Shown here piece by piece: positions 3,010-48,964 of a stretch of DNA of 64,000 bases (positions are counted from its first letter, which is position 1; each line of letters opens with the position of its first letter). The stretch comes from Schmidtea polychroa. Lineage: Eukaryota. Position numbers and translations under genes: made by a program. Where the stretch lies: NCBI GenBank assembly GCA_044892525.1, contig CM097885.1:13580001-13644000 (forward strand), in the 5' to 3' direction. The notes beneath the pieces were generated by a model that worked only from the letters and a program-made list of their open reading frames with translations, was not told the DNA's origin and made no database searches.

Positions 3010-4250
3010 TACTTTTCCAATTATTTATGACATGCCAAGCTATGACCAATCGTCGACTGACAGTACTTCTTATACAGTTTGCTTGATAAAATATATATAT
3101 ATATAAATTATAGCATCATGTATCATCCATAATCATCTTAAATATTATCATTATATTATTATTTAATTCATTTAAAAATTATTGATAAATGAATTAAATA
3201 TTAAATTAAATTAAAAATTATTATTATTATTATTATTATTTACAAAAATATTATTATTTAAATTAACATTCATGATTGCAGTTAGCAACCATGAATGCTA
3301 ACAAAGACATCATGTGTTTAATGCGTGATCAGCGCATAAAGACAATGATTAATGACAAAGACAGTGCATGATCAGTGCATGTCTCATAAAGAAACATAAT
3401 GAAATTAAAATTCCTATAGAAAAAAGATTTAAAATTATCTAAACCTAAAGGATTGGCATTTAATTCCTCCCCAGATAAAAATTTATTTAATTTTAAGTAT
3501 TTATTCTTTGATTCCTTAATTTTAGTTAAAGGAATCAAATTTGGAAACTTATTATAGAGCTGTTTTCGCTCTTTTTTTTAGTTAAAATACGAATATAAGT
3601 TTTAAAATCAAATATTTTATTACTTATTTTCGGTTTGGAAATAAAAACTTTAGGATTTACAGAACTTTTATTATTGTTTATTGAAATTTTAAAATTTTCG
3701 AAATTTTGACTATCGATATTAAAATCGTTATTAACATTAATATTGAGAATTTTATCACAAGTCGAATTATTAACATTACAATTATCTATATTTACAATTT
3801 CATTAGCTTTAGAATTTTTATTTAAAGAAAATTTATCAAAATTATTTAAATTATTAGAGAAATTTTCAAAATTTAAAGATAAACATTCTAACCGTTCGAA
3901 CATCTTTGAAAATAAAATCTCCATTGAATCCAAACGTTTCTCGAAATTCTGAAACTGATTGTCTGGCTTGTTTGGAAGGACATTGTTCATCGAATGATTC
4001 TCCATGGAAGTCATATTAATTCCAGCTTTGAATTGATCGAAAAAGTCCAAAATAGCTTGAGTTGATTGCAATTGATATTGGAATAATTTCTGAAATTTCT
4101 TCATACCAATTGCATTATTACACAATACATCTGCAGTCATTAATTGAACTTCAGTGTGCATATCTTGTTGATGCATTGCGTCAGGCGATGGCGTCATCTT
4201 GTTCATTTGATATTCTTGATAGATTTCATATGATTGCTTTAGAAATTGCT
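3010..4250 (-). repeat. Partial third copy of the 6.4-kb cassette (its right-hand 1.24 kb)
   Basis: Near-identical to about 31057-32297 and 37456-38696, with the same 249-aa and 69-aa ORFs. Confidence 0.92.
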
Positions 4251-4284
4251 TCCATTGCGCCACTGAGACTCTAAAGAAATCCAC
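3535..4284 (-). pseudogene. Diverged, frameshifted and truncated ORF1 of a sister subfamily, fused to tRNA nt 1-19 and spacer sequence
   Basis: The 249-aa ORF matches the ORF1 N-terminus (PDAMHQQDMH...NFEKRLD). A frameshift in an A-run continues it as the 69-aa ORF 3329-3538 (IPLTKIKESKNKYLKL). Confidence 0.85.
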
Positions 4285-6930: not shown

Positions 6931-7279
6931 ATTAAACATTTATTAAATATAACAAATTTGAATATTGTTTTTAACAGATAATCAGCTCTACATGGAGTTG
7001 TCCATAAGCAAATATTCACATATTAACTTCATCTGCTGGAATCTCTGATCACTCTCATCGGATTTCATCATCCGGCATTGCGACTTGTCTTTGGTAGATT
7101 GAAGATCTAAATTCTTAAATTTGCTTTGTCGCAGAATATTTATCTCGAAAAAATGAAAGTTTCTTTAATAATTAGTTTATTTTTTTTAATGAAATTTAAA
7201 TTTGGTTTGTTTTAATAATCAAATTAATAAAAGTTTTAAATTTAATTATTTTCCTATGTTGAAAACCAATTTATTTTAA

Positions 7280-10200
7280 TTATTCAAAGTTTGGAAGCTT
7301 TCCATTACAATGAAAATACCAAATCTTTGCCGAATGTGCAATGTTACTTATTGCACATTCCTTCATCAAACCTTTGATTTTTGTTTGTGGAATTCCCATT
7401 TTTAATAAAAGATCAGAAGTTTTTGGTTCAATTGATCCCAAGGAACCCATGATGCATGTGAACAATTCAACTTTGTAATCAGGTTTAACTGTTTGTATAT
7501 CTGTTTTTAATTTATCATATTTTTCCATATTTAATTTGTCGACTCGCTCAAAATTAATTACAGAATCAATTGGACATTTCATGTCTACTAGTAAAATCGT
7601 TTTTCTCTCGGTATTGGTTATTAAAAGATCAACCCGTTCGTTGGAATTCGGTACAAGAGAACATTTATGATCAGTGACAACCAAGAGTTCAGGATTTTTA
7701 AGTGCATCTTTAATTTTTTCCAAGCAAGCATTATGTCTATTAGTTGCTAATGATTGATTGATTCTACAAGTTTGGAGTACATGTAAAATTGTCTCATCTT
7801 CAGATTTACACCTACGACAAAGGCGGTCTTCGCCAGTTTTATGTGGCTTTGCAAATGTAGAGAGTGTATTTGTTCGAGCTCGATGAATGAAATTCCATTC
7901 AAAGTCTGTCAAGTCACTACGAAAGATTAGTTTGTTGACAAATGGACAAAGTTTGAGAGCAGATACAATTAGATTACTTTGATTACTCTTCTCCCACTTT
8001 TCGAGATACGAATCTTGAAGAGCAGAATGGAGAATCTTTGATAATGCTTTTCTTAATTTTGGTAATAATATGCGAGTGCCAGTTAATGAAGTAGTGAGCC
8101 GAATCGAAGGATTTTGTTTGAAAGTTTCGAACGAAATTTTAATGTTGTGAACTCGATTGAAATATGCAATTGATGCACGCAATCGGTAGAAGCGAGTTTT
8201 ACTACCACTATGATTTAATTTGCTTTCTTTTCCATTAACCCATTCCAAGCTTTGACTGAGAGTTGGTTCTTTGATTCCGAGTCTTGGACTTGTCACAGAC
8301 AAGAGTGAAAAAGTGTTTATCTTTTTTGAATAGTCGCAAGTTGATGTTAGTAAACGGAAGAAGTAAACAATCGACTGTGTGTGATACTCATCAAGAAGGT
8401 CAATACAGCCAGCTCCACCATTTTCAGTGGCATTATAGAAATAACTTATTTCAGAGTGGTTTGGTAAATTTAATATTTTCCTCAAATGGCTCCTCAATTG
8501 GCTAGTACTATTTACATTTATCCTTGAGTTACTACTAGGAGATGTTAATGAACTAGTTTTAATTTCCCTAGTTCTAAATGGGAAAATAAGGCGCGAATGC
8601 AGGAAGATTTTATAAGCTTTGAGCTTTTGCCAACCATAGAGATCAGAGTTAGCAATCTTTTTAGTATCTTCAATGACTTGGCTGACGATTTCATAGGGAC
8701 TTTGATCATTATTATCACCTATTGGCACTCCTAAGTATTGGTAAAATTCATTACCAGCAAGTTTTTTAATTAAATCATTGTTGACAACGATTTCACTGAC
8801 CGTTTCTAGTTTTGGGTATTGTATATATGCACATTTTTCAGGGCGATATTCAAATCCAATATTATTGGCAGTTTTTACAGCTACGCCAATTAGCTTTTGG
8901 AGGTCAGTTGAGCTAGTTGCAATAAGTGCAATGTCATCAGCATAAGCTAACACTTGTACTTGAGAAGAGCCTATCATAAAAGGTGTAATGTTAGATGCGG
9001 TAATAGCTTCAAGAACCGGATTAATAGCTATTGCAAACAGAATCATAGAGATCGGGCAGCCTTGTTTTACACCTTTCTTTATTGGAATATTTGGTGTCTG
9101 CATTTTGTTACAGCGATAAAAAGAGCTCGTATCTGTATAAAGTAATTTCAGGATATTCACAAAGTTTTCACCAACGTTCATATGTCTTAACAATGTCCAC
9201 ATGTATTCGTGTGGAACACTTCCGAAAGCGTCTTTGATGTCAAGCCATGCTATTGCTAAAGGTGAAGATTTACTATATTTTGAATGCTCGACAATCGCAG
9301 AGAGAATTGAGTTGTGTTCAATACATCCTTCGTATTCTGAACCACCCTTTTGGCCAATATGCAGCAGATTATTTTCTTTAATCCATGAACTAAGGCGAGT
9401 TGCAAGAACTGAAGCGAAAACTTTGTAAATCACTGACAGTAATGCGATTGGTCGCCATGAAGATATTTTATGGTATTGGTCATTTTTATCAGGTTTCGGA
9501 ATTAATATTGTTTTAAAAGTTTTCCAACTTGTAGGGATAGATTTCAGTTGAATGACTTTGTTGAAAAGTAACGCTAGAAGCTTACAATCTGGATCAAGTA
9601 ACAGAAGATCTTTATAATATACATTATCAAGTCCGGGCGTAGAATTATCAGCTTCCTGAAGATTGGAAAGAATTTCCATTGGCGTAGTAATTTCTAATTC
9701 AAGTAAGCTTTTCGAGATTTTACTAAAGTTTAAAACGTTGTTCCAACTTCCAGGTAAAGTATCTTGATGAGTGAAAGTGTTTATAATTTCCTGAAATGGT
9801 GGTTCAGCTTTTTCGCTCTGATTACCTAAAATTCTGTTTACAGTCTTTTTCATATTTTTCAGAAATTCAGTAGAATTGTTGAATTTTTTAGGTTTATTGT
9901 GATTTTTCCCAAGATATGGCTCTCGAAATTCTTGATCCTGCAAATTTTCTAGATGAGGAATATTTGCCAGAATAGTAGAGATAATTTCATCAACATTAGA
10001 GTTAGACAATGTAGTTAAAAGCTCATCAATTCTATCTTTGCGTTGCTTCAAAGTTAGTTTCAAAGAATTAGCAATTTTCAATTTTCCACGTCTCTCAATT
10101 TTGACAATGTCATTATTATCAACTATTGGAACTAGAGAGTTGATTATTTCAGAAATTTCAGTCAAGTTAATATTTTCAAGAGATTTATCTTGAGTGTAGT

Positions 10201-11875
10201 TTCTGATAAATGCACAAATTAATATTTTGCTAAATAAACCAGAACCTCTTATATCATGTGGGCAGTGGCCAATTGTCATTGAACGCCCTTTACTTTGTCT
10301 TAGCTCATTAATTTTGAGCACAATGTTATAAGAGAAAGCTTTAGAAAACACATTCAAATCATTGGTCACTGGACTAAGAAAATAATGTTCGTCTGTGTCG
10401 TAATCAATTACCAACAGCAATTCATGGGCCTTGGGAGGAGAAATTATTGCAAAGATTACATTTGCCTTCATCATGTCCTCAATGTTTAAAAAATCATTTA
10501 AGTATTGAGTACAATCATCTGAAATTGCAGCAGACAAAGTTCTGTTTAGGAGAATATAATTATTCGATAATTTTAGGTTCATAAAATATTCATTAATAAT
10601 TTTATCAGTTATTTTACCGTTGATTAAATTAAAGTTGGGAGAAATTTCAATGCACGACTGAGATTTTAATTCACCAAGTGTATCATATACTTTATCATAA
10701 TCCAAGAGTCTTTCAAAGACAAATTTCTCAAAAAACACAATAAAGGAACTTGCGAAGTATTGATTGTCATTAGAGTGAAAGGAAGGATGCGAGATTCGAT
10801 GATCAGCTATGAATTTAATTTTTCGATTAAGACAAAATTGATTGAGATAATCGGTCATCTTTTCACCAATTTCAATCAATCTCTCATCAATATTTCTATA
10901 ATTAAAATCAAAAATGTAGCTACGGTTAAGTTTGCTGGAGTATATGAAAAGACACCAATCTTTAAATTTTGGAATGACACCAAGAATGTGATCGATTCCT
11001 TTAAATTGTTTAAAGGTGACATTGTCGGCTATAAAAGAGTCATTTTGCGCAATTAAATTGGATGTTAAATTGGCAGATAAAACCAAGATTTTAGAATTCT
11101 CTTTATAATATTTACCAATTAGTGATGACACACATGGCGCTTGGTTGTTGAGAATTTTAGTAATGTTTAAATTATTATTTGTAGTTTTAGATTTAGCGAT
11201 AGCCTTCTTGAAATTGATTGTTGCCATATTTAAATTGTTTTTAGCACCTCCAATTAAATTTGGTGCACCATTAACCAAGTGTTTCTGATATCGATGAACA
11301 TTTCGTCTTATTTCTTCAATGAATCCATCAGGAAAGATGTTCCAATCTTTACTGATTATCACTGCATAAGCGCAAGTGAATGGACCACAGTCAAAGTTGT
11401 TATTTTGATATTGAAGATTTGTATGCGGATGATATGACACTGCTATCTTGAGGTTGAAAAATCTATTTAGTGCAATATTCATTTTAAGAGCCATTTGTTT
11501 GTTGATTAGATTATTTCGGTTATTAAAAATTGGATCAATAAAGTAAGATGAATTTGATTTCTTACAGTATACAAAAAGAATCCAATGGGAATTGTTTATA
11601 TTAAGTGGACAAAAAATCATTTCAGCATTGGTAATTGACTGTGGAATTGCAACAATTTCTTCTTGAATATTCGAGCATAGAATATTAACGATGAAGCATT
11701 TGATGTATCCATGCATTGGATTGTCGATATGGTTTTCAAGATACCAATCAATATCATTATCAGAGAACCACATTTCAGGATCAAAATCGTCAATTGGTAA
11801 ATAGTAATTATCTATTGTGCTCTCTGCATCAGTCTCATTAGAGGGAACGGCAGACGCTTGAGCTGATGCAGGCAC
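7280..11875 (-). CDS. ORF2: Ulp1/C48-like cysteine protease, reverse transcriptase, CCHC knuckle and restriction-like endonuclease
   Basis: Protease motifs SHWIL..FIDP..QNNNFDCGPF. RT motifs WRPIAL, LDIKDAFGSV, GVKQGCPIS, YADD, YLGV. Zinc knuckle CRRCx8HxxxxC, RHN, and RLE motif RVDLLI...LVDMKCP. No ATG at the start of the frame (GTG). Confidence 0.96.
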   Translation of the reverse strand: MPASAQASAVPSNETDAESTIDNYYLPIDDFDPEMWFSDNDIDWYLENHIDNPMHGYIKCFIVNILCSNIQEEIVAIPQSITNAEMIFCPLNINNSHWILFVYCKKSNSSYFIDPIFNNRNNLINKQMALKMNIALNRFFNLKIAVSYHPHTNLQYQNNNFDCGPFTCAYAVIISKDWNIFPDGFIEEIRRNVHRYQKHLVNGAPNLIGGAKNNLNMATINFKKAIAKSKTTNNNLNITKILNNQAPCVSSLIGKYYKENSKILVLSANLTSNLIAQNDSFIADNVTFKQFKGIDHILGVIPKFKDWCLFIYSSKLNRSYIFDFNYRNIDERLIEIGEKMTDYLNQFCLNRKIKFIADHRISHPSFHSNDNQYFASSFIVFFEKFVFERLLDYDKVYDTLGELKSQSCIEISPNFNLINGKITDKIINEYFMNLKLSNNYILLNRTLSAAISDDCTQYLNDFLNIEDMMKANVIFAIISPPKAHELLLVIDYDTDEHYFLSPVTNDLNVFSKAFSYNIVLKINELRQSKGRSMTIGHCPHDIRGSGLFSKILICAFIRNYTQDKSLENINLTEISEIINSLVPIVDNNDIVKIERRGKLKIANSLKLTLKQRKDRIDELLTTLSNSNVDEIISTILANIPHLENLQDQEFREPYLGKNHNKPKKFNNSTEFLKNMKKTVNRILGNQSEKAEPPFQEIINTFTHQDTLPGSWNNVLNFSKISKSLLELEITTPMEILSNLQEADNSTPGLDNVYYKDLLLLDPDCKLLALLFNKVIQLKSIPTSWKTFKTILIPKPDKNDQYHKISSWRPIALLSVIYKVFASVLATRLSSWIKENNLLHIGQKGGSEYEGCIEHNSILSAIVEHSKYSKSSPLAIAWLDIKDAFGSVPHEYMWTLLRHMNVGENFVNILKLLYTDTSSFYRCNKMQTPNIPIKKGVKQGCPISMILFAIAINPVLEAITASNITPFMIGSSQVQVLAYADDIALIATSSTDLQKLIGVAVKTANNIGFEYRPEKCAYIQYPKLETVSEIVVNNDLIKKLAGNEFYQYLGVPIGDNNDQSPYEIVSQVIEDTKKIANSDLYGWQKLKAYKIFLHSRLIFPFRTREIKTSSLTSPSSNSRINVNSTSQLRSHLRKILNLPNHSEISYFYNATENGGAGCIDLLDEYHTQSIVYFFRLLTSTCDYSKKINTFSLLSVTSPRLGIKEPTLSQSLEWVNGKESKLNHSGSKTRFYRLRASIAYFNRVHNIKISFETFKQNPSIRLTTSLTGTRILLPKLRKALSKILHSALQDSYLEKWEKSNQSNLIVSALKLCPFVNKLIFRSDLTDFEWNFIHRARTNTLSTFAKPHKTGEDRLCRRCKSEDETILHVLQTCRINQSLATNRHNACLEKIKDALKNPELLVVTDHKCSLVPNSNERVDLLITNTERKTILLVDMKCPIDSVINFERVDKLNMEKYDKLKTDIQTVKPDYKVELFTCIMGSLGSIEPKTSDLLLKMGIPQTKIKGLMKECAISNIAHSAKIWYFHCNGKLPNFE

Positions 11876-11884
11876 ACATCTTCA
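11816..11884 (-). promoter_or_regulatory. Candidate UGA readthrough signal: stop codon, 5-nt spacer, stem-loop
   Basis: Minus strand TGA AGATG TGTGC-CTGCATCAG-CTCA...TGAG-A-CTGATGCAG-AGA-GCACA. The stem is unchanged in all three copies. Confidence 0.65.
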
Positions 11885-14419
11885 TTTGGTCTTCGATGAT
11901 TGTTTTTTTAGTGTCGTAGCTCGCGATTTTGTAGCAGATTTCTTTGTGAGAGGTTCTTCAATAGTCTCTGTAGGGATTGGATTGACTTGACTAGAATTTG
12001 ATTGATCAGTGGAAATGGCGTCAAATAAACAGTTTTCACAAATGTTAACATTCATTCCTTCTCTGGCCAAAATGAATTTTTCAAGGATGTTATTACATTT
12101 CATACAGTTGATTTCTTCTATGACAACGATAGGGTCCAAAACATCATTGTTGGTAGTTGGATTGTCAATATCGCAATTGGTTTCGGCTGTTTCTTTTACA
12201 TTGATTTGGTTAACAATTAATTTTAATTTAGTTATTATTAGAGAAATTTGCTGGCACATCTCTGGAGTGCAATATTTATTACTTGTTTCAAACAGACGGA
12301 ATTTCTGGTTTTTATCCATCAATTTCTTTGTATCTCTCAACAAAAAATAAATAAATCGCTTCGCTTTAACGCCATATGTGTCATCTATTAATTTCTCATT
12401 ATTAATTGTTTCCATTAATTTAGTAAGGATATTATTGTTTTGAAATTTATTGGGAAAGGTTTCGTCAACAAGATCAAGAAAACTATTAACACATGCTATA
12501 GTTTCTGGAGATATTACGTTATGGATCTTTTTAATTTCCCCAGAAATTTTCCATTGTTTTAATTTCAAGAGTTTTTCTTGACAATTTGTATAATAAAAAG
12601 ACGAGTTTGGAATCCTTTGAATAATTTCAGAAGCCCAACTTTCAAAATTTTCAAGCGAGAGAAGAGAAAGATCTTCAAGCGAACAGAGTGAATTTAATAA
12701 ACAACAATTTCGAATATAGTTCACAACATAATCAGAATAAGTTTGATTTTGAGAAAATTTTAAGGATCCAACCAAACCCAAGTAATTTAGATAAAATACT
12801 ATCTCAACAATTTTAAAGTGACAATCTGTTTTAGTCAAAATTGATTTTAATTCAACATCATCTTTTGCCATGTTTATTAGATCAAATAACCCAAGATTAA
12901 ACATTATGTCAGGAAATGAATTGGGTTCTTTGTGTTTAATATCAGATTGAAAGAATTTACCCCCTTCAAAAAAGATATCTTCAGGAAACACATTATCGAT
13001 TTTTAAAGATTCAATCAACTTAATAATTGAAGATGATTTTGAGTCAGGATTCTCAACAAACATAATCTCTTTAAGAGAAGGATAAGATGAGTAGAGAGAT
13101 TTCATCTGGGTACGAGAGAGTTCGGAAAATGTTGATGATGTGAAATCGTTATTTATCTTGGATGTTATATTTGGGTTTGTCAAATCTAACAATATAAACT
13201 CACCCTTTTGATATTTAATTTTTGATTTTACCAGATAATTTGGGAGTTTATCTTGTTTAATCAAAGAAGAAATGATTTTATTAATTTTATTTTCTCTATG
13301 ATTACAATCTGTAATAGAAACTGTTTCAGAAAGCTCAGGCGAAAGATTAAATAAAAATCTTTTAATTGAAGTTGGTGCTGCTATATAATTAGAAAAATTA
13401 GGAAAAGTCTTTACAATATTATGTTCAGACAAAAAAATTTTCTTTTTATAAGAGACAGGTTTAACGGTTGAGTTTTCATTTAAAAAACTACTTATATGAA
13501 ACTCAACACAGAAATTAAAATTCCTATAAAGAAAACATTTAAAATTATCTAAACCTAAAGGATTGGTATTAAATTCCTCCCCAGATAAAACTTTATTTAA
13601 TTTTAAATATTTATTCTTTGATTCCTTAATTTTAGTTAAAGGAATCAAAGTTGGAAACTTATTATAGAGCTGTTTTCGCTCTTTTTTTGTTAAAATACGA
13701 ATAAAAGTCTTAAAATCAAAACTTTTATTACTTATTATCGGTTTGGAAACAAACACTTTAGGATTGTCAAAACGTGTATTATTATTTATTGAAATTTTAA
13801 AATTATCGAAATTTGCACTATCCTTATTTAAATCGTTATTCACATTAATTTTTAGATTTTTATCAGAAGTTGAATTATTAACATTACAAGAATTTTTATT
13901 TAAAGGAAATTTATCAAACTCTATATTAAAATCCTTATTGACAATTGATGAATTATTAAAATTACAATTATCTAAATTTGAAATTTCATTAATTTTATTA
14001 TCTTTAAAATGGAAAAAATCTTTATTTAAAGAAAATTTATTGAAATTATTTAAATTATTAAAGAAACCCTCAAAATTCAAAGATAAACACTCTAACCTTT
14101 CAAGCTTCTTTGAGAATGAAATCTCCATTAAATCCAAACGTTTCTCGAAATTCTGAAACTGATTTTCCGGCTTGTTTGGAAGGACATTGTTCATTGAATT
14201 CTCCATGGAAGGCATATGAAATCCAGCTTTGAATTGACTGAAGAAATCCAAAAGAGCTTGATTTGATTGCAATTGATATTGGAATAATTTCTGAAGTTTC
14301 TTCATATCAATTGCATAATTACATAATCCTTCTGCAGTCGTTGATTGAACTCCAGTGTGCATATCTTGTTGATGCATTGCGTCAGGCGATTGCATCATCT
14401 TGTTTTCTCCGTTAGTCAT
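11882..14419 (-). CDS. ORF1, 845 aa, unknown function (Asn/Lys-rich; CxxC...CxxC motif near the C-terminus)
   Basis: Long ORF conserved in copies 1, 3 and 4. Contains CMKC-x16-CENC and a basic C-terminal tail. The first ATG straddles the tRNA/element junction. Confidence 0.88.
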   Translation of the reverse strand: MTNGENKMMQSPDAMHQQDMHTGVQSTTAEGLCNYAIDMKKLQKLFQYQLQSNQALLDFFSQFKAGFHMPSMENSMNNVLPNKPENQFQNFEKRLDLMEISFSKKLERLECLSLNFEGFFNNLNNFNKFSLNKDFFHFKDNKINEISNLDNCNFNNSSIVNKDFNIEFDKFPLNKNSCNVNNSTSDKNLKINVNNDLNKDSANFDNFKISINNNTRFDNPKVFVSKPIISNKSFDFKTFIRILTKKERKQLYNKFPTLIPLTKIKESKNKYLKLNKVLSGEEFNTNPLGLDNFKCFLYRNFNFCVEFHISSFLNENSTVKPVSYKKKIFLSEHNIVKTFPNFSNYIAAPTSIKRFLFNLSPELSETVSITDCNHRENKINKIISSLIKQDKLPNYLVKSKIKYQKGEFILLDLTNPNITSKINNDFTSSTFSELSRTQMKSLYSSYPSLKEIMFVENPDSKSSSIIKLIESLKIDNVFPEDIFFEGGKFFQSDIKHKEPNSFPDIMFNLGLFDLINMAKDDVELKSILTKTDCHFKIVEIVFYLNYLGLVGSLKFSQNQTYSDYVVNYIRNCCLLNSLCSLEDLSLLSLENFESWASEIIQRIPNSSFYYTNCQEKLLKLKQWKISGEIKKIHNVISPETIACVNSFLDLVDETFPNKFQNNNILTKLMETINNEKLIDDTYGVKAKRFIYFLLRDTKKLMDKNQKFRLFETSNKYCTPEMCQQISLIITKLKLIVNQINVKETAETNCDIDNPTTNNDVLDPIVVIEEINCMKCNNILEKFILAREGMNVNICENCLFDAISTDQSNSSQVNPIPTETIEEPLTKKSATKSRATTLKKQSSKTK

Positions 14420-17400
14420 TAGAAGTCCGACGCGCTATCCATTGCGCCACTGAGACTCTAAAGAAATCCACTCACTTCACTTTATCTACATTGGCATTTA
14501 AAAAATTGTCAATTTGACTCTTGTCAAGTCAAAACAAATTTCTCATGCTTTTGATATTCTTGATAGATTTCGTATGATTGCATTAGAAATTGCTTTGACG
14601 ATTTTTCGTTGTTGAAAACAAAATTTTGTCAAAGACAATTCTGTAAAAATGCATCTCAGGTGGGACTCGAACCCACAACCTCCGGATTAGAAGTCCGACG
14701 CGCTATCCATTGCGCCACTGAGACTCTAAAGAAATCCACTCACTTCACTTTATCTACATTGGCATTTAAAAAATTGTCAATTTGACTCTTGTCAAGTCAA
14801 AACAAATTTCTCATGCTTTTGATATTCTTGATAGATTTCGTATGATTGCATTAGAAATTGCTTTGACGATTTTTCGTTGTTGAAAACAAAATTTTGTCAA
14901 AGACAATTCTGTAAAAATGCATCTCAGGTGGGACTCGAACCCACAACCTCCGGATTAGAAGTCCGACGCGCTATCCATTGCGCCACTGAGACTCTAAAGA
15001 AATCCACTCACTTCACTTTATCTACATTGGCATTTAAAAAATTGTCAATTTGACTCTTGTCAAGTCAAAACAAATTTCTCATGCTTTTGATATTCTTGAT
15101 AGATTTCGTATGATTGCATTAGAAATTGCTTTGACGATTTTTCGTTGTTGAAAACAAAATTTTGTCAAAGACAATTCTGTAAAAATGCATCTCAGGTGGG
15201 ACTCGAACCCACAACCTCCGGATTAGAAGTCCGACGCGCTATCCATTGCGCCACTGAGACTCTAAAGAAATCCACTCACTTCACTTTATCTACATTGGCA
15301 TTTAAAAAATTGTCAATTTGACTCTTGTCAAGTCAAAACAAATTTCTCATGCTTTTGATATTCTTGATAGATTTCGTATGATTGCATTAGAAATTGCTTT
15401 GACGATTTTTCGTTGTTGAAAACAAAATTTTGTCAAAGACAATTCTGTAAAAATGCATCTCAGGTGGGACTCGAACCCACAACCTCCGGATTAGAAGTCC
15501 GACGCGCTATCCATTGCGCCACTGAGACTCTAAAGAAATCCACTCACTTCACTTTATCTACATTGGCATTTAAAAAATTGTCAATTTGACTCTTGTCAAG
15601 TCAAAACAAATTTCTCATGCTTTTGATATTCTTGATAGATTTCGTATGATTGCATTAGAAATTGCTTTGACGATTTTTCGTTGTTGAAAACAAAATTTTG
15701 TCAAAGACAATTCTGTAAAAATGCATCTCAGGTGGGACTCGAACCCACAACCTCCGGATTAGAAGTCCGACGCGCTATCCATTGCGCCACTGAGACTCTA
15801 AAGAAATCCACTCACTTCACTTTATCTACATTGGCATTTAAAAAATTGTCAATTTGACTCTTGTCAAGTCAAAACAAATTTCTCATGCTTTTGATATTCT
15901 TGATAGATTTCGTATGATTGCATTAGAAATTGCTTTGACGATTTTTCGTTGTTGAAAACAAAATTTTGTCAAAGACAATTCTGTAAAAATGCATCTCAGG
16001 TGGGACTCGAACCCACAACCTCCGGATTAGAAGTCCGACGCGCTATCCATTGCGCCACTGAGACTCTAAAGAAATCCACTCACTTCACTTTATCTACATT
16101 GGCATTTAAAAAATTGTCAATTTGACTCTTGTCAAGTCAAAACAAATTTCTCATGCTTTTGATATTCTTGATAGATTTCGTATGATTGCATTAGAAATTG
16201 CTTTGACGATTTTTCGTTGTTGAAAACAAAATTTTGTCAAAGACAATTCTGTAAAAATGCATCTCAGGTGGGACTCGAACCCACAACCTCCGGATTAGAA
16301 GTCCGACGCGCTATCCATTGCGCCACTGAGACTCTAAAGAAATCCACTCACTTCACTTTATCTACATTGGCATTTAAAAAATTGTCAATTTGACTCTTGT
16401 CAAGTCAAAACAAATTTCTCATGCTTTTGATATTCTTGATAGATTTCGTATGATTGCATTAGAAATTGCTTTGACGATTTTTCGTTGTTGAAAACAAAAT
16501 TTTGTCAAAGACAATTCTGTAAAAATGCATCTCAGGTGGGACTCGAACCCACAACCTCCGGATTAGAAGTCCGACGCGCTATCCATTGCGCCACTGAGAC
16601 TCTAAAGAAATCCACTCACTTCACTTTATCTACATTGGAATTTAAAAAATTGTCAATTTGACTCTTGTCAAGTCAAAACAAATTTCTCATGCTTTTGATA
16701 TTCTTGATAGATTTCGTATGATTGCATTAGAAATTGCTTTGACGATTTTTCGTTGTAGAAAACAAAATTTTGTCAAAGACAATTCTGTAAAAATGCATCT
16801 CAGGTGGGACTCGAACCCACAACCTCCGGATTAGAAGTCCGACGCGCTATCCATTGCGCCACTGAGACTCTAAAGAAATCCACTCACTTCACTTTATCTA
16901 CATTGGCATTTAAAAAATTGTCAATTTGACTCTTGTCAAGTCAAAACAAATTTCTCATGCTTTTGATATTCTTGATAGATTTCGTATGATTGCATTAGAA
17001 ATTGCTTTGACGATTTTTCGTTGTTGAAAACAAAATTTTGTCAAAGACAATTCTGTAAAAATGCATCTCAGGTGGGACTCGAACCCACAACCTCCGGATT
17101 AGAAGTCCGACGCGCTATCCATTGCGCCACTGAGACTCTAAAGAAATCCACTCACTTCACTTTATCTACATTGGCATTTAAAAAATTGTCAATTTGACTC
17201 TTGTCAAGTCAAAACAAATTTCTCATGCTTTTGATATTCTTGATAGATTTCGTATGATTGCATTAGAAATTGCTTTGACGATTTTTCGTTGTTGAAAACA
17301 AAATTTTGTCAAAGACAATTCTGTAAAAATGCATCTCAGGTGGGACTCGAACCCACAACCTCCGGATTAGAAGTCCGACGCGCTATCCATTGCGCCACTG

Positions 17401-22200: not shown

Positions 22201-24786
22201 GTAGAATTGTTGAATTTTTTAGGTTTATTGTGATTTTTCCCAAGATATGGCTCTCGAAATTCTTGATCCTGCAAATTTTCTAGATGAGGAATATTTGCCA
22301 GAATAGTAGAGATAATTTCATCAACATTAGAGTTAGACAATGTAGTTAAAAGCTCATCAATTCTATCTTTGCGTTGCTTCAAAGTTAGTTTCAAAGAATT
22401 AGCAATTTTCAATTTTCCACGTCTCTCAATTTTGACAATGTCATTATTATCAACTATTGGAACTAGAGAGTTGATTATTTCAGAAATTTCAGTCAAGTTA
22501 ATATTTTCAAGAGATTTATCTTGAGTGTAGTTTCTGATAAATGCACAAATTAATATTTTGCTAAATAAACCAGAACCTCTTATATCATGTGGGCAGTGGC
22601 CAATTGTCATTGAACGCCCTTTACTTTGTCTTAGCTCATTAATTTTGAGCACAATGTTATAAGAGAAAGCTTTAGAAAACACATTCAAATCATTGGTCAC
22701 TGGACTAAGAAAATAATGTTCGTCTGTGTCGTAATCAATTACCAACAGCAATTCATGGGCCTTGGGAGGAGAAATTATTGCAAAGATTACATTTGCCTTC
22801 ATCATGTCCTCAATGTTTAAAAAATCATTTAAGTATTGAGTACAATCATCTGAAATTGCAGCAGACAAAGTTCTGTTTAGGAGAATATAATTATTCGATA
22901 ATTTTAGGTTCATAAAATATTCATTAATAATTTTATCAGTTATTTTACCGTTGATTAAATTAAAGTTGGGAGAAATTTCAATGCACGACTGAGATTTTAA
23001 TTCACCAAGTGTATCATATACTTTATCATAATCCAAGAGTCTTTCAAAGACAAATTTCTCAAAAAACACAATAAAGGAACTTGCGAAGTATTGATTGTCA
23101 TTAGAGTGAAAGGAAGGATGCGAGATTCGATGATCAGCTATGAATTTAATTTTTCGATTAAGACAAAATTGATTGAGATAATCGGTCATCTTTTCACCAA
23201 TTTCAATCAATCTCTCATCAATATTTCTATAATTAAAATCAAAAATGTAGCTACGGTTAAGCTTACTGGAGTATATGAAAAGACACCAATCTTTAAATTT
23301 TGGAATGACACCAAGAATGTGATCGATTCCTTTAAATTGTTTAAAGGTGACATTGTCGGCTATAAAAGAGTCATTTTGCGCAATTAAATTGGATGTTAAA
23401 TTGGCAGATAAAACCAAGATTTTAGAATTCTCTTTATAATATTTATCAATTAGTGATGACACACATGGCGCTTGGTTGTTGAGAACTTTAGTAATGTTTA
23501 AATTATTATTTGTAGTTTTAGATTTAGCGATAGCCTTCTTGAAATTGATTGTTGCCATATCTAAATTGTTTTTAGCACCTCCAATTAAATTTGGTGAACC
23601 ATTAACCAAGTGTTTCTGATATCGATGAACATTTCGTCTTATTTCTTCAATGAATCCATCAGGAAAGCTGTTCCAATCTTTACTGATTATCACTGCATAA
23701 GCGCAAGTGAATGGACCACAGTCAAAATTGTTATTTTGATATTGAAGATTTGTATGCGGATGATATGACACTGCTATCTTGAGGTTGAAAAATCTATTTA
23801 GTGCAATATTCATTTTAAGAGCCATTTGTTTGTTGATTAGATTATTTCTGTTATTAAAAATTGGATCAATAAAGTAAGATGAATTCGATTTCTTACAGTA
23901 TACAAAAAGAATCCAATGGGAATTGTTTATATTAAGTGGACAAAAAATCATTTCAGCATTGGTAATTGACTGTGGAATTGCAACAATTTCTTCTTGAATA
24001 TTCGAGCATAGAATATTAACGATGAAACACTTGATGTATCCATGCATTGGATTGTCGATATGGTTTTCAAGATACCAATCAATATCATTATCAGAGAACC
24101 ACATTTCACTATCAAAATCGTCAATTGTTAAATAGTAATTATCTATTGTGCTCTCTGCATCAGTCTCATTAAAGGGAACGGCAGACGCTTGAGCTGATGC
24201 AGGCACACATCTTCATTTGGATTTCGATGATTGTTTTTTTAGTGTCGTAGTTCGCGATTTTGTACCAGATTTCTTTGTGAGAGGTTCTTCAATAGTCTCT
24301 GTAGGGATTGGATTGACTTGACTAGAATTTGATTGATCAGTGGAAATGGCGTCAAATAAACAGTTTTCACAAATGTTAACATTCATTCCTTCTCTGACCA
24401 AAATGAATTTTTCAAGGATGTTATTACATTTCATACAGTTGATTTCTTCAATGACAACGATAGGGTCCATAACATTACTGTTGGTAGTTTGATTGTCAAT
24501 ATCGCAATTGGTTTCGGCTGTTTCTGTTACATTGATTTGGTTAACAATTAATTTTAATTTAGTTATTATTAGAGAAATTTGCTGGCACATCTCTGGAGTG
24601 CAATATTTATTGCTTGTTTCAAACAGACGGAATTTCTGGTTTTTATCCTTAAATTTCTTTGTATCTCTCAACAAAAAATAAATAAATCGCTTCGCTTTAA
24701 CGCCATATGTGTCATCTATTAATTTCTCATTATTAATTGTTTCCATTAATTTAGTAAGGATATTATTGTTTTGAAATTTATTGGGA
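19262..24786 (-). mobile_element. Retrotransposon copy 3, 5'-truncated within ORF1
   Basis: Same 3' junction (tRNA nt 20). The 5' junction joins the tRNA T-arm through a 5-bp microhomology (tggga, 24782-24786), giving a 40-45 bp target duplication. Confidence 0.95.
19611..24206 (-). CDS. ORF2 (Ulp1-RT-CCHC-RLE), intact, 1531 aa
   Basis: Same motifs as 7280-11875 with few amino-acid differences. Confidence 0.95.
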   Translation of the reverse strand: MPASAQASAVPFNETDAESTIDNYYLTIDDFDSEMWFSDNDIDWYLENHIDNPMHGYIKCFIVNILCSNIQEEIVAIPQSITNAEMIFCPLNINNSHWILFVYCKKSNSSYFIDPIFNNRNNLINKQMALKMNIALNRFFNLKIAVSYHPHTNLQYQNNNFDCGPFTCAYAVIISKDWNSFPDGFIEEIRRNVHRYQKHLVNGSPNLIGGAKNNLDMATINFKKAIAKSKTTNNNLNITKVLNNQAPCVSSLIDKYYKENSKILVLSANLTSNLIAQNDSFIADNVTFKQFKGIDHILGVIPKFKDWCLFIYSSKLNRSYIFDFNYRNIDERLIEIGEKMTDYLNQFCLNRKIKFIADHRISHPSFHSNDNQYFASSFIVFFEKFVFERLLDYDKVYDTLGELKSQSCIEISPNFNLINGKITDKIINEYFMNLKLSNNYILLNRTLSAAISDDCTQYLNDFLNIEDMMKANVIFAIISPPKAHELLLVIDYDTDEHYFLSPVTNDLNVFSKAFSYNIVLKINELRQSKGRSMTIGHCPHDIRGSGLFSKILICAFIRNYTQDKSLENINLTEISEIINSLVPIVDNNDIVKIERRGKLKIANSLKLTLKQRKDRIDELLTTLSNSNVDEIISTILANIPHLENLQDQEFREPYLGKNHNKPKKFNNSTEFLKNMKKTVNRILGNQSEKAEPPFQEIINTFTHQDTLPGSWNNVLNFSKISKSLLELEITTPMEILSNLQEADNSTPGLDNVYYKDLLLLDPDCKLLTLLFNKIIQLKSIPTSWKTFKTILIPKPDKNDQYHKVSSWRPIALLSVIYKVFASVLATRLSLWIKENNLLHIGQKGGSEYEGCIEHNSILSAIVEHSKYSKSSPLAIAWLDIKDAFGSVPHEYMWTLLRHMNVGENFVNILKLLYTDTSSFYRCNKMQTPNIPIKKGVKQGCPISMILFAIAINPVLEAITASNITPFMIGSSQVQVLAYADDIALIATSSTDLQKLIDVAVKTANNIGFEYRPEKCAYIQYPKLETVSEIVVNNDLIKKLAGNEFYQYLGVPIGDNNDQSPYEIVSQVIEDTKKIANSDLYGWQKLKAYKIFLHSRLIFPFRTREIKTSSLTAPSSNSRINVNSTSQLRSHLRKILNLPNHSEISYFYNATENGGAGCIDLLDEYHTQSIVYFFRLLTSTCDYSKKINTFSLLSVTSPRLGIKEPTLSQSLEWVNGKESKLNHSGSKTRFYRLRASIAYFNRVHNIKISFETFKQNPSIRLTTSLTGTRILLPKLRKALSKILHSVLQDSYLEKWEKSNQSNLIVSALKLCPFVNKLIFRSDLTDFEWNFIHRARTNTLSTFAKPHKTGEDRLCRRCKSEDETILHVLQTCRINQSLATNRHNACLEKIKDALKNPELLVVTDHKCSLVPNSNERVDLLITNTEKKTILLVDMKCPIDSVINFERVDKLNLEKYDKLKSDIQTVKPDYKVELFTCIMGSLGSIEPKTSDLLLKMGIPQTKIKGLMKECAISNIAHSAKIWYFHCNGKLPNFE

Positions 24787-26730: not shown

Positions 26731-26759
26731 TAGAATAATAAATAAATACAATAATAATA

Positions 26760-44900: not shown

Positions 44901-46587
44901 CTTGAGTGTAGTTTCTGATAAATGCACAAATTAATATTTTGCTAAATAAACCAGAACCTCTTATATCATGTGGGCAGTGACCAATTGTCATTGCACGCCC
45001 TTTACTTTGTCGTAGCTCATTAATTTTGAGCACAATGTTATAAGAGAAAGCTTGAGAAAACACATTCAAATCATTGGTCACTGGACTAAGAAAATAATGT
45101 TCGTCTGTGTCGTAATCAATTACCAGCAGCAATTCATGGGCCTTGGGAGGAGAAATTATTGCAAAGATTACATTTGCCTTCATCATGTCCTCAAGGTTTA
45201 AAAAATCATTTAAGTATTGAGTACAATCATCTGAAATTGCAGCAGACAAAGTTCTGTTTAGGAGAATATAATTATTCGATAATTTTAGGTTCATAAAATA
45301 TTCATTAATAATTTTATCAGTTATTTTCCCGTTGATTAAATTAAAGTTGGGAGAAATTTCAATGCACGACTGAGATTTTAATTCACCAAGTGTATCATAT
45401 ACTTTATCATAATCCAAGAGTCTTTCAAAGACAAATTTCTCAAAAAACACAATAAAGGAACTTGCAAAGTATTGATTGTCATTAGAGTGAAAGGAAGGAT
45501 GCGAGATTCGATGATCAGCTATGAATTTAATTTTTCGATTAAGACAAAATTGATTGAGATAATCGGTCATCTTTTCACCAATTTCAATCAATCTCTCATC
45601 AATATTTCTATAATTAAAATCAAAAATGTAGCTACGGTTAAGCTTACTGGAGTATATGAAAAGACACCAATCTTTAAATTTTGGAATGACACCAAGAATG
45701 TGATCGATTCCTTTAAATTGTTTAAAGGTGACATTGTCGGCTATAAAAGAGTCATTTTGCGCAATTAAATTGGATGTTAAATTGGCAGATAAAACCAAGA
45801 TTTTAGAATTCTCTTTATAATATTTATCAATTAGTGATGACACACATGGCGCTTGGTTGTTGAGAACTTTAGTAATGTTTAAATTATTATTTGTAGTTTT
45901 AGATTTAGCGATAGCCTTCTTGAAATTGATTGTTGCCATATCTAAATTGTTTTTAGCACCTCCAATTAAATTTGGTGAACCATTAACCAAGTGTTTCTGA
46001 TATCGATGAACATTTCGTCTTATTTCTTCAATGAATCCATCAGGAAAGCTGTTCCAATCTTTACTGATTATCACTGCATAAGCGCAAGTGAATGGACCAC
46101 AGTCAAAATTGTTATTTTGATATTGAAGATTTGTATGCGGATGATATGACACTGCTATCTTGAGGTTGAAAAATCTATTTAGTGCAATATTCATTTTAAG
46201 AGCCATTTGTTTGTTGATTAGATTATTTCTGTTATTAAAAATTGGATCAATAAAGTAAGATGAATTCGATTTCTTACAGTATACAAAAAGAATCCAATGG
46301 GAATTGTTTATATTAAGTGGACAAAAAATCATTTCAGCATTGGTAATTGACTGTGGAATTGCAACAATTTCTTCTTGAATATTCGAGCATAGAATATTAA
46401 CGATGAAACACTTGATGTATCCATGCATTGGATTGTCGATATGGTTTTCAAGATACCAATCAATATCATTATCAGAGAACCACATTTCACTATCAAAATC
46501 GTCAATTGTTAAATAGTAATTATCTATTGTGCTCTCTGCATCAGTCTCATTAAAGGGAACGGCAGACGCTTGAGCTGATGCAGGCAC
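41992..46587 (-). CDS. ORF2 (Ulp1-RT-CCHC-RLE), intact, 1531 aa
   Basis: Same motifs as the other copies. Confidence 0.95.
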   Translation of the reverse strand: MPASAQASAVPFNETDAESTIDNYYLTIDDFDSEMWFSDNDIDWYLENHIDNPMHGYIKCFIVNILCSNIQEEIVAIPQSITNAEMIFCPLNINNSHWILFVYCKKSNSSYFIDPIFNNRNNLINKQMALKMNIALNRFFNLKIAVSYHPHTNLQYQNNNFDCGPFTCAYAVIISKDWNSFPDGFIEEIRRNVHRYQKHLVNGSPNLIGGAKNNLDMATINFKKAIAKSKTTNNNLNITKVLNNQAPCVSSLIDKYYKENSKILVLSANLTSNLIAQNDSFIADNVTFKQFKGIDHILGVIPKFKDWCLFIYSSKLNRSYIFDFNYRNIDERLIEIGEKMTDYLNQFCLNRKIKFIADHRISHPSFHSNDNQYFASSFIVFFEKFVFERLLDYDKVYDTLGELKSQSCIEISPNFNLINGKITDKIINEYFMNLKLSNNYILLNRTLSAAISDDCTQYLNDFLNLEDMMKANVIFAIISPPKAHELLLVIDYDTDEHYFLSPVTNDLNVFSQAFSYNIVLKINELRQSKGRAMTIGHCPHDIRGSGLFSKILICAFIRNYTQDKSLENINLTEISEIINSLVPMVDNNDIVKIERRGKLKIANSLKLTLKQRKDRIDELLTTLSNSNVDEIISTILANIPHLENLQDQEFREPYLGKNHNKPKKFNNSTEFLKNMKKTVNRILGNQSEKAEPPFQEIINTFTHQDTLPGSWNNVLNFSKISKSLLELEITTPMEILSNLQEADNSTPGLDNVYYKDLLLLDPDCKLLALLFNKIIQLKSIPTSWKTFKTILIPKPDKNDQYHKVSSWRPIALLSVIYKVFASVLATRLSLWIKENNLLHIGQKGGSEYEGCIEHNSILSAIVEHSKYSKSSPLAIAWLDIKDAFGSVPHEYMWTLLRHMNVGENFVNILKLLYTDTSSFYRCNKMQTPNIPIKKGVKQGCPISMILFAIAINPVLEAITASNITPFMIGSSQVQVLAYADDIALIATSSTDLQKLIDVAVKTANNIGFEYRPEKCAYIQYPKLETVSEIVVNNDLIKKLAGNEFYQYLGVPIGDNNDQSPYEIVSQVIEDTKKIANSDLYGWQKLKAYKIFLHSRLIFPFRTREIKTSSLTAPSSNSRINVNSTSQLRSHLRKILNLPNHSEISYFYNATENGGAGCIDLLDEYHTQSIVYFFRLLTSTCDYSKKINTFSLLSVTSPRLGIKEPTLSQSLEWVNGKESKLNHGGSKTRFYRLRASIAYFNRVHNIKISFETFKQNPSIRLTTSLTGTRILLPKLRKALSKILHSALQDSYLEKWEKSNQSNLIVSALKLCPFVNKLIFRSDLTDFEWNFIHRARTNTLSTFAKPHKTGEDRLCRRCKSEDETILHVLQTCRINQSLATNRHNACLEKIKDALKNPELLVVTDHKCSLVPNSNERVDLLITNTEKKTILLVDMKCPIDSVINFERVDKLNLEKYDKLKSDIQTVKPDYKVELFTCIMGSLGSIEPKTSDLLLKMGIPQTKIKGLMKECAISNIAHSAKIWYFHCNGKLPNFA

Positions 46588-46593
46588 ACATCT

Positions 46594-48918
46594 TCATTTG
46601 GATTTCGATGATTGTTTTTTTAGTGTCGTAGTTCGCGATTTTGTACCAGATTTCTTTGTGAGAGGTTCTTCAATAGTCTCTGTAGGGATTGGATTGACTT
46701 GACTAGAATTTGATTGATCAGTGGAAATGGCGTCAAATAAACAGTTTTCACAAATGTTAACATTCATTCCTTCTCTGACCAAAATGAATTTTTCAAGGAT
46801 GTTATTACATTTCATACAGTTGATTTCTTCAATGACAACGATAGGGTCCATAACATTACTGTTGGTAGTTTGATTGTCAATATCGCAATTGGTTTCGGCT
46901 GTTTCTGTTACATTGATTTGGTTAACAATTAATTTTAATTTAGTTATTATTAGAGAAATTTGCTGGCACATCTCTGGAGTGCAATATTTATTGCTTGTTT
47001 CAAACAGACGGAATTTCTGGTTTTTATCCTTAAATTTCTTTGTATCTCTCAACAAAAAATAAATAAATCGCTTCGCTTTAACGCCATATGTGTCATCTAT
47101 TAATTTCTCATTATTAATTGTTTCCATTAATTTAGTAAGGATATTATTGTTTTGAAATTTATTGGGAAAGGTTTCGTCAACAAGATCAAGAAAACTATTA
47201 ACACATGCTATTGTTTCTGGAGAAATTACGTTATGGATCTTTTTAATTTCCCCAGAAATTTTCCATTGTTTTAATTTCAAGAGTTTTTCTTGACAATTTG
47301 TATAATAAAAAGACGAGTTTGGAATCCTTTGAATAATTTCAGAAGCCCAACATTCAAAATTTTCAAGTGAGAGAAGAGAAAGATCTTCAAGCGAACAGAG
47401 TGAATTTATTAAACAACAATTTCGAATATAGTTCACAACATAATCAGAATAAGTTTGATTTTGAGAAAATTTTAAGGATCCAACCAAACCCAAGTAATTT
47501 AGATAAAATACTATCTCAACAATTTTAAAGTGACAATCTGTTTTAGTCAAAATTGATTTTAATTCAACATCATCTTTTGCCATGTTTATTAGATCAAATA
47601 ACCCAAGATTAAACATTATGTCAGGAAATGAATTGGGTTCTTTGTGTTTAATATCAGATTGAAAGAATTTACCCCCTTCAAAAAAGATATCTTCAGGAAA
47701 CACATTATCGATTTTTAAAGATTCAATCAACTTAATAATTGAAGATGATTTTGAGTCAGGATTCTCAACAAACATAATCTCTTTAAGAGAAGGATAAGAT
47801 GAGTAGAGAGTTTTCATCTGGGTACGAGATAGTTCGGAAAATGTTGATGATGTGAAATCGTTATTTATCTTGGATGTTATATTTGGGTTTGTCAAATCTA
47901 ACAATATAAACTCACCCTTTTGATATTTAATTTTTGATTTAACCAGATAATTTGGGAGCTTTTCTTGTTTAATCAAAGAAGAAATGATTTTATTAATTTT
48001 ATTTTCTCTATGATTACAGTCTGTAATAGAAACTGTTTCAGAAAGCTCAGGCGAAAGGTTAAATAAAAATCTTTTAATTGAAGTTGGTGCTGCTATATAA
48101 TTAGAAAAATTAGGATAAGTCTTTACAATATTATGTTCAGACAGAAAAAGTTTCTTTTTATAAGAGACAGGTTTAACGGTTGAGTTTTCATTTAAAAAAC
48201 TATCTAAATGAAACTCAACACAGAAATTAAAATTCCTATAAAAAAAACATTTAAAATTATCTAAACCTAAAGGATTGGCATTAAATTCCTCCCCAGATAA
48301 AATTTTATTTAATTTTAAATATTTATTCTTTGATTCCTTAATTTTAGTTAAAGGAATCAAAGTTGGAAACTTATTATAGAGCTGTTTTCGCTCTTTTTTT
48401 GTTAAAATACGAATAAAAGTCTTAAAATCAAAACTTTTATTACTTATTTTCGGTTTGGAAACCAACACTTTAGGATTGTCAAAACGTGTATTATTATTTA
48501 TTGAAATTTTAATATTATCGAAATTTTGACTATCCTTATTTAAATCGTTATTCACATTAATATTAAGATTTTTATCAGAAAGCGAATTATTAACATTACA
48601 AGAATTTTTATTTAAAGGAAATTTATCAAACTCTATATTAAAATCCTTATTGACATTTGATGAATTATTAAAATTACAATTATCTAAATTTGAAATTTCA
48701 TTAATTTTATTATCTTTAAAATGGAAAAAATCTTTATTTAAAGAAAATTTATCAAAATTATTTAAATTATTAAAGAAACTCTCAAAATTTAAAGATAAAC
48801 ACTCTAACCTTTCAAGCATCTTTGAGAATGAAATCTCCATTAAATCCAAACGTTTCTCGAAATTCTGAAACTGATTTTCCGGCTTGTTTGGAAGGACATT
48901 GTTCATTGAATTCTCCAT
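46594..48918 (-). CDS. ORF1, N-terminally truncated (774 aa)
   Basis: Matches residues 72-845 of the full ORF1. Confidence 0.85.
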   Translation of the reverse strand: MENSMNNVLPNKPENQFQNFEKRLDLMEISFSKMLERLECLSLNFESFFNNLNNFDKFSLNKDFFHFKDNKINEISNLDNCNFNNSSNVNKDFNIEFDKFPLNKNSCNVNNSLSDKNLNINVNNDLNKDSQNFDNIKISINNNTRFDNPKVLVSKPKISNKSFDFKTFIRILTKKERKQLYNKFPTLIPLTKIKESKNKYLKLNKILSGEEFNANPLGLDNFKCFFYRNFNFCVEFHLDSFLNENSTVKPVSYKKKLFLSEHNIVKTYPNFSNYIAAPTSIKRFLFNLSPELSETVSITDCNHRENKINKIISSLIKQEKLPNYLVKSKIKYQKGEFILLDLTNPNITSKINNDFTSSTFSELSRTQMKTLYSSYPSLKEIMFVENPDSKSSSIIKLIESLKIDNVFPEDIFFEGGKFFQSDIKHKEPNSFPDIMFNLGLFDLINMAKDDVELKSILTKTDCHFKIVEIVFYLNYLGLVGSLKFSQNQTYSDYVVNYIRNCCLINSLCSLEDLSLLSLENFECWASEIIQRIPNSSFYYTNCQEKLLKLKQWKISGEIKKIHNVISPETIACVNSFLDLVDETFPNKFQNNNILTKLMETINNEKLIDDTYGVKAKRFIYFLLRDTKKFKDKNQKFRLFETSNKYCTPEMCQQISLIITKLKLIVNQINVTETAETNCDIDNQTTNSNVMDPIVVIEEINCMKCNNILEKFILVREGMNVNICENCLFDAISTDQSNSSQVNPIPTETIEEPLTKKSGTKSRTTTLKKQSSKSK

Positions 48919-48964
48919 GGAAGGTCATTCTCAAGGTCATGTGACTCATACTATGACGCATCCA

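Follow-up and report, generated by a model that had tools for sequence, protein, structure and literature searches.

The window analysed here, a stretch of 64,000 nucleotides (nt) from Schmidtea polychroa (assembly GCA_044892525.1, contig CM097885.1, positions 13,580,001 to 13,644,000, forward strand), holds a tandem array of tRNA-Arg(TCT) genes with a repeat unit of 268 bp, of which 45 genes are intact according to ARAGORN. The array is interrupted by minus-strand copies of a 7.5-kb retrotransposon without long terminal repeats (non-LTR) that encodes a restriction-like endonuclease (RLE). In this element, two long open reading frames (ORFs), ORF1 and ORF2, lie in one frame and are separated by a single UGA codon that is followed by a predicted hairpin. 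Comparison with its relatives shows the junction to be a genuine recoding-type signal under strong selection, in an element lineage that is already known, and programmed readthrough of the UGA is the most likely explanation. Readthrough stimulated by the RNA structure would yield an ORF1–ORF2 fusion of ~2,400 amino acids (aa), a reading that is regarded as probable.

Architecture of the junction

On the minus strand, ORF1 runs into ORF2 through the sequence AAA TGA AGA TGT GTG CCT GCA with the TGA at 11884-11882, and both ORFs form one frame as described in the initial annotation; the same TGA is found at 24215-24213 and 46596-46594 in the two further copies of Table 1. The stem previously seen to start 5 nt past the stop is borne out as a predicted fold of −26.4 kcal/mol (z = −3.4), a stability reached by none of 200 shuffled sequences. 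It constitutes the most stable 75-nt window of ORF1 and ORF2, with 0 of 270 other windows folding as well. Of the interrupted 18-bp stem first proposed, the fold itself holds and its sharing across families is limited to a 13-bp core—GTGC/GCAC plus CTGCATCAG/CTGATGCAG, behind the 6-nt spacer—with the CTCA/TGAG pairs at the top being family specific. The sole difference between the window copies within 11816-11884 is indeed a C/T at 11841, which is located in the loop. Because copies 2, 3, and 4 are 98 to 99% identical to each other, with differing 5′ ends, they alone say little on conservation, and the weight of the argument comes from divergent families.

Two numbers of the initial annotation need adjustment. 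The first in-frame ATG of ORF2 lies at codon 37 (11773-11771) instead of codon 35, and the fusion length of about 2379 aa is correct if counted from the next Met, the longest possible fusion measuring 2,395 aa. A −1 frameshift on the A residues that precede the stop was rejected, as it meets a stop 14 codons beyond the junction, and so were an overlapping AUGA and a chain of tiny out-of-frame ORFs as a shared signal, both of which vary between families. The hairpin matches no Rfam family, ribozymes included, and no shared long-range partner of the loop was found among exact 8-mers.

Conservation of the stop codon across eight families

Related families were found by searching the element's own genome with two outside proteins, whereby the best 150 of 936 and of 925 candidates were scored. 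The 36 loci fetched comprise 20 LIN-type copies with an intact ORF2, six members of a sister lineage, and 10 decayed or truncated copies that were excluded from the family counts (L067, L068, L072, L073, L076, L129, L130, L137, L138, and L139). Among the latter, L139 has a TAA and a broken ORF2, and L067, L072, and L073 have a damaged junction. Eight families (A–H) possess an intact ORF2, herein 50 to 80% identical, with ORF1 cores that are 36 to 59% identical to that of family A. All eight share the same succession of ORF1, in-frame UGA-A, 6-nt spacer, and two stem arms, followed by an Ulp1 protease, a reverse transcriptase (RT), and the RLE. The sampled copies occupy arrays of tRNA-Arg, Gly/Asp, Ala, Thr, Ser/His, and Cys genes and of 5S rRNA, and the clade appears to have radiated over arrays of Pol III genes. 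Family D resides in the 5S rRNA array (L066:9147-9570 and 554-676) and its relatives in tRNA arrays.

The junction stop is UGA in 21/21 copies with an intact ORF2, meaning the 20 fetched ones and the window copy. In the same 21 copies, the terminal stop of ORF2 is TAA (12), TGA (7), or TAG (2) and varies even within families. Throughout the genome, 569 of 572 exact matches to the spacer and 5′ arm are preceded by TGA and none by TGG; the three non-TGA matches include one broken copy with TAA and one short match outside the element. Active relatives with a sense codon at this position, which the initial annotation had named as evidence against readthrough, were not found, as 0/572 motif matches carry a G at the third stop position. 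As a null for the retention of TGA versus TAA, 0 of 55 invariant Lys, Glu, or Gln columns hold a third-position G in all eight families. The families are kin, so they do not represent eight independent draws, and the background columns share the same relatedness. Across the families sampled, this comparison demonstrates that the identity of the stop, UGA, is under selection. An apparently fused copy with an open frame of 2,341 aa at one locus was taken as a counting artefact, other searches of that place showing the TGA and 1,535 aa.

Conservation and predicted pairing of the stem

Within the first 25 codons of ORF2, seven of nine four-fold sites are invariant compared with 3 of 149 elsewhere (binomial P ~5e-11), and no other 25-codon window of ORF2 contains more than one such site. 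At this level of comparison, selection on the stem nucleotides is evident. The junctions of all eight families fold with z-scores from −3.2 to −5.3, and RNAalifold returns 13 pairs, two of which show a wobble change in one sequence each and one a mismatch in one sequence. The linker between the hairpin and the WF.D motif occurs in six lengths from 16 to 30 codons, always in whole codons and always open.

Probable entry of translation into ORF2

The first in-frame Met codon of ORF2 varies widely, being located at codon 37 in family A, 56 in B, 317 in C, 180 in D, 139 in E, 51 in F, 39 in G, and 51 in H. The catalytic His of the protease lies near position 96-108 and the catalytic Cys near 160-174 across families. 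A start at the AUG would thus lie past both catalytic residues in families C and D, which would lose the whole protease, and cost family E the His. The AUG-free stretch of C, D, and E is 56 to 58% identical to family A, and in these alignments, ORF2 is clearly under protein-level constraint upstream of any AUG. Termination followed by reinitiation at an AUG, the alternative offered by the initial annotation, fails in families C, D, and E, and it cannot be general because the first AUG is not conserved and lies past the catalytic His in three families. An overlap of stop and start as in SART1 is not present either: no AUG at the stop is in frame, and the in-frame Met follows at codon 37-317. 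Since the AUG-free stretch is conserved and the linker is open, translation should enter ORF2 at or before the hairpin, via the UGA or a non-AUG codon.

Outside relatives of the junction

Outside relatives lend indirect support to the structure. The alignments of contigs from a second organism are concentrated on 11799-11887, that is, on the hairpin, and in one of these contigs, indels of +1 and −1 in the loop cancel out and leave the frame intact. The outside proteins P0003, P0004, and P0006 (33-54% identity) begin with MPAS..SDAE, MHAS..SDV, and MPAPV..TGAD, respectively. These N termini permit 9-10 of 10 core pairs, and at least nine are reached by 1 of 174 control positions. In P0006, exchanges of Ser to Pro and of Asp to Gly require C-G for a pair that is U-A in the genome families; taken together, the outside N termini would imply two compensatory swaps. 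Their leading M could be encoded by GTG or ATG, and GTG is the parsimonious codon in P0003 because this protein nests inside the A–H clade in the RT tree. Another relative, P0012, contains a long N terminus, Ulp1, and RT in one ORF of 2,421 aa. A scan of metagenomes confirmed 4 of 127 candidate stretches, all of them at 23 to 28% identity.

Proposed readthrough and its alternatives

According to the proposed mechanism, the element would make one RNA, on which most ribosomes would stop at the UGA and release the ORF1 protein. The hairpin, placed 6 nt downstream and thereby at the mRNA entry channel, would delay or divert a minority of ribosomes. These would insert an amino acid at the UGA and continue into a fusion of ORF1, protease, RT, and endonuclease of ~2,400 aa. 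The outcome would be a high ratio of ORF1 to RT, as in the gag-pol of gammaretroviruses, and the Ulp1-like protease may cut after a Gly-Gly just behind itself and free the part consisting of RT and endonuclease. The gag-pol–like readthrough first put forward in the initial annotation is supported by the conservation across families; that it takes place, at which level, and in dependence on the stem is inferred from sequence. Readthrough would explain why the two ORFs are in frame, why the UGA and the spacer are fixed, and why the spacer codons undergo conservative exchanges.

Several points weigh against this reading. UGA-A is not a classic leaky context, and the GUG that follows the spacer is as invariant as the UGA. 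The pairing is predicted and lacks proof by covariation: the analysis called for in the initial annotation was run, and 0/13 stem pairs changed on both sides in DNA. As the arms hardly vary, being too frozen, covariation is silent at the DNA level. The compensatory swaps implied by the outside proteins are drawn from amino acid sequences and not from DNA, in registers set by eye; P0061 permits just 7/10 pairs, and P0005 is without a clear motif. ORF1 has no detectable similarity to the N terminus of P0012, and since the two do not align, P0012 shows the domain order and not ORF1 homology. The Candida Tca2 junction, which consists of a UGA and a predicted pseudoknot, gave no readthrough in yeast reporters (PMC2194720, PMC7175516). 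As for the context, Drosophila kelch combines UGA-A with a stem (PMC3159437).

The main rival, which is unlikely, is reinitiation without an AUG: after terminating at the UGA, ribosomes would be retained by the hairpin and begin again at the invariant GUG, two codons further on, so that ORF2 is made separately. This GUG is found in 12/12 aligned junctions, an invariance for which its pairing at the foot of the stem is already reason enough, and L1 ORF2 is reportedly translated independently of AUG. Reinitiation in SART1 depends on an RNA structure past the stop of ORF1, and in norovirus it proceeds regardless of the Kozak context (PMC5972666, PMC10275272). Moreover, P0003, P0004, P0006, and P0061 start with M at or beside the GUG position, which is read as the GTG start of a gene caller. 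However, a restart at GUG gives no reason for a constant UGA over the commoner UAA and leaves unexplained that the two spacer codons change conservatively only. The context of the GUG is furthermore poor, with a pyrimidine at −3 and a C at +4 in all eight families.

Very unlikely is a processed ORF2 RNA, to which spliced-leader trans-splicing, cis-splicing, or an internal promoter would give a start. The flatworm leader ends in an AUG that is able to start ORFs (PMC9851317), the 5′ arm ends in CAG as a possible acceptor, and Tca2 has a weak promoter at its junction (PMC2194720). The CAG, however, is out of frame for the leader AUG and is CAA in L065. Family F contains no in-frame codon ending in AG within the first 50 codons and the other families share just a GAG; for the spliced ORF2 transcript that the initial annotation had listed as a counterargument to readthrough, the sequence thus holds no conserved in-frame acceptor. 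A promoter alone would supply no AUG in families C, D, and E, and reverse transcription of a spliced template would give copies that lack the stop, none of which is seen among the motif matches. Processing would also leave the selection on UGA unexplained. Of four sequencing runs assembled into contigs, the one from the element's own species listed no splice joint, but none of its contigs spanned the stop with 31 nt on either side, so that it speaks neither for nor against splicing.

There is scarcely any probability that the UGA encodes selenocysteine (Sec), with the hairpin as a Sec redefinition element as in SEPN1. The UGA is fixed and the SEPN1 stem likewise lies 6 nt past the UGA (PMC3159437), but no Sec insertion sequence (SECIS) was detected by Rfam in the 3′ untranslated region (UTR) of family A and in seven other family loci, nor by a simple pattern (0/8 UTRs), searches that a divergent SECIS could have escaped, and the Cys near the UGA gives way to His or Tyr in part of the families. 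A stretch AUGA...GA in the 3′ UTR of family A, SECIS-like by eye, was dropped, given that the corresponding site of family B reads AUAA. Just as little is to be said for an inactivating mutation in common or a deviant genetic code, with the hairpin serving, for example, RNA packaging. Proteins could bind to the palindromic arms and a second role is possible, but hundreds of young copies with an intact ORF2 carry the stop, and eight diverged families that are still expanding cannot all be inactive. TGA is a normal stop here, since it ends ORF2 in 7/21 copies. The least probable alternative is A-to-I editing, by which some of the RNA would carry a Trp codon in place of the UGA. The adjoining long stem would favor this, but the stop lies outside the shared stem, and TGG would be expected in copies made from edited RNA, whereas 0/572 motif matches have a G there.

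A sister lineage with its own in-frame UGA

In the sister lineage, TGA is followed by CTA in 25 of the 30 loci whose alignment reached the junction, the other five being off register, and three more divergent members have TGA-TGG. No comparable hairpin folds at these junctions, and the stop is placed differently relative to the domains. In the RT tree, the sister lineage and families A–H are ~30% identical and form separate, well-supported clades in an open fork, the root of which was not tested. Two origins of the in-frame UGA are thereby suggested. The sister lineage (L131-L136, L084-L113) has an ORF1 of 1,200 to 1,450 aa that matches no Pfam family, and its six long loci contain no tRNA genes.

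A wider proposal, held tentatively and with slightly more doubt than confidence, is that readthrough might be the normal way of RT expression in the whole flatworm RLE branch and might have arisen twice: with UGA-A and a frozen hairpin in the clade targeting tRNA and 5S genes, and with mostly UGA-CUA and no hairpin in the sister clade. Combined with a self-cleaving Ulp1, it would amount to the retroviral gag-pro-pol logic re-invented around ORF1.

Proteins encoded by the element

In copy 2, ORF1 consists of 850 open codons in the frame of ORF2. Counted from the first Met, its length is 861 aa in 11 out of 20 other copies of the family; hence, copy 2 is slightly truncated at its 5′ end. ORF1 is built of a conserved core of ~490 aa and a variable linker that ends in a basic tail. 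It has no significant Pfam family and no Atlas match, and no homologue was found among 7,998 candidates of 467 to 1,488 aa. The predicted structure of ORF1 (pTM 0.33) gave no Foldseek match at E 0.001, the best VIA Z being 6.0; for this model, the null searches mean that no fold was found, which differs from a new fold. By eye, the core (window 11885-13714), which is well conserved across families, contains an apparent internal repeat, and a four-cysteine motif near the C terminus is present only in families A and B.

The CCHC and D-x-K endonuclease motifs of ORF2 were identified by eye, and the match to zf-RVT is weak (E 0.03). Just after the Ulp1 domain, a Gly-Gly at aa 211-212 (window 11246-11251) is found in 8/8 families as well as in most outside relatives, namely P0003, P0004, P0006, P0012, P0155, and P0061. 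SUMO proteases cleave after Gly-Gly, and one may guess that this is a candidate self-cleavage site of the fusion. Behind the active protease, ORF2 aa 240-590 (window ~10100-11170) seem by eye to contain two further degenerate Ulp1-like repeats.

Identity of the element and the surrounding array

The tRNA gene and its flanks differ little from the planarian sequence in S6 Fig of PMC4640811, and compared with this figure, the 3′ junction of the element corresponds to the LIN15_SM site in the tRNA-Arg TCT gene, before GCGTCGG. The 3′ terminal sequence is unlike that of the LIN15_SM rows shown there, with a similarly AT-rich 3′ end. Because of the same site and the differing terminal sequence, the element belongs to a LIN15-related family and is not LIN15_SM itself. 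It contains an RT of PF00078, C-terminal CCHC and RLE motifs, an Ulp1 upstream of the RT, and the LIN15 site. By these features, it is a tRNA-Arg–targeting RLE non-LTR retrotransposon that is related to planarian LIN15 and probably belongs to the R5/LIN lineage of the NeSL clade. In the 3′ UTR, a motif GCAAAGCCGGA...ATCCGA (window ~7050-7085) occurs in families A, B, C, D, and H (5/8, exact pattern) and is possibly an RT recognition site.

Further remnants are scattered over the array. Three near-identical inserts of 1.3 kb (3010-4338, 31057-32385, and 37456-38780) consist of a diverged 5′ fragment of ORF1 joined to unrelated AT-rich sequence, and the block 26000-32400 is duplicated at 32400-38800. 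At 58533-59461, a decayed head-to-tail junction that is ~89% identical to copy 2 fuses the 3′ end of the element to the 5′ end of ORF1. Upstream of the junction of L064, a fragment of the RT region shares one frame of 1,308 open codons with ORF1, a fusion that probably arose by nested or tandem insertion.

Table 1. Positions in the window of the element copies, their ORFs and domains, and the parts of the ORF1–ORF2 junction.
Feature	Position	Strand	Description
Copy 2 (family A)	6931..14420	−	In tRNA-Arg(TCT) gene of the 268-bp array; slight 5′ truncation
ORF1	11885..14419	−	845 aa from ATG in copy 2; 861 aa in longer copies
ORF2	7280..11881	−	1533 codons: Ulp1-like protease, RT, CCHC zinc knuckle, restriction-like endonuclease
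Ulp1-like cysteine protease	11348..11638	−	PF02902, ORF2 aa 82-178, E 2e-9; catalytic His99, Cys165
Reverse transcriptase	8723..9502	−	PF00078, ORF2 aa 794-1053, E 9e-30
In-frame UGA, candidate readthrough codon	11882..11884	−	Context AAA UGA A
6-nt spacer, two codons	11876..11881	−	Codon +1 always Arg/Lys; codon +2 Cys, His, or Tyr
5′ stem arm	11863..11875	−	Starts with invariant GUG (Val3), candidate start codon for reinitiation
Loop, 30 nt	11833..11862	−	Same length in 12 aligned junctions; sequence varies in part, with a single frozen TCT (Ser) codon
3′ stem arm, 3-nt bulge	11817..11832	−	
Copy 3 UGA and hairpin	24146..24215	−	Element 19262-24786; TGA at 24215-24213
Copy 4 UGA and hairpin	46527..46596	−	Element 41645-48924; TGA at 46596-46594

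Comparison with known systems

Long interspersed nuclear elements with two ORFs are known for reinitiation; readthrough, if true, would be a third strategy, convergent with the control of retroviral gag-pol. The signal is short (70 nt) and unusually frozen, and could represent a new readthrough stimulator in the UGA-A context. For annotation, this means that AUG-based callers mis-start ORF2 of these families, in some by >300 residues. Site-specific RLE elements are studied as gene-insertion tools, for which the true extent of the active proteins matters. A literature search that did not reach subscription papers, Repbase entries, and bioRxiv supplements yielded no report of readthrough in RLE elements. 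RLE elements are described as having a single ORF (PMC5678591); here, there is one frame, but the conserved UGA interrupts it, and it is a single ORF only if read through.

Among the closest known systems, LIN15_SM of the R5/LIN lineage in the NeSL clade has the same insertion point in tRNA-Arg and a different 3′ terminal sequence (Kojima and Jurka 2015, PMC4640811). On ORF layout, stop codons, or readthrough in LIN families, the parts of the text and supplements of PMC4640811 that were available contain nothing. NeSL-1 and Utopia-1_TSP likewise carry an Ulp1-like cysteine protease before RT and RLE (PMC4640811). Utopia families reportedly encode one protein with N-terminal zinc fingers, whereas here a large ORF1 is cut from the protease by a conserved stop.

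Among non-LTR elements, SART1 and L1 also express ORF2 from the ORF1 RNA (PMC5972666, PMC10275272). SART1 does so by an overlapping stop and start with AUG and L1 has a spacer of 63 nt, whereas the ORFs of the present element are in frame without a shared AUG. The gag-UGA-pol of Candida Tca2 resembles it in having a UGA and a predicted 3′ structure between in-frame ORFs, but Tca2 is an LTR element.

Moloney murine leukemia virus likewise has an in-frame stop before protease and RT, together with a 3′ RNA structure, and readthrough there amounts to ~5% (PMC8310308). This retrovirus uses UAG, an 8-nt spacer, and a pseudoknot, whereas the non-LTR element has UGA, a 6-nt spacer, and a bulged stem-loop. 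The signals of alphaviruses, tobraviruses, Drosophila kelch, and SEPN1 are similar in combining UGA, a spacer of 6 to 12 nt, a bulged stem of 10 to 16 bp, and twin peaks of synonymous conservation, with a loop that is less conserved than the stem (PMC3159437). They are mostly UGA-C and show compensatory changes, whereas the junction of the tRNA-Arg–targeting element is characterized by UGA-A, near-invariant arms, and a short loop of fixed length.

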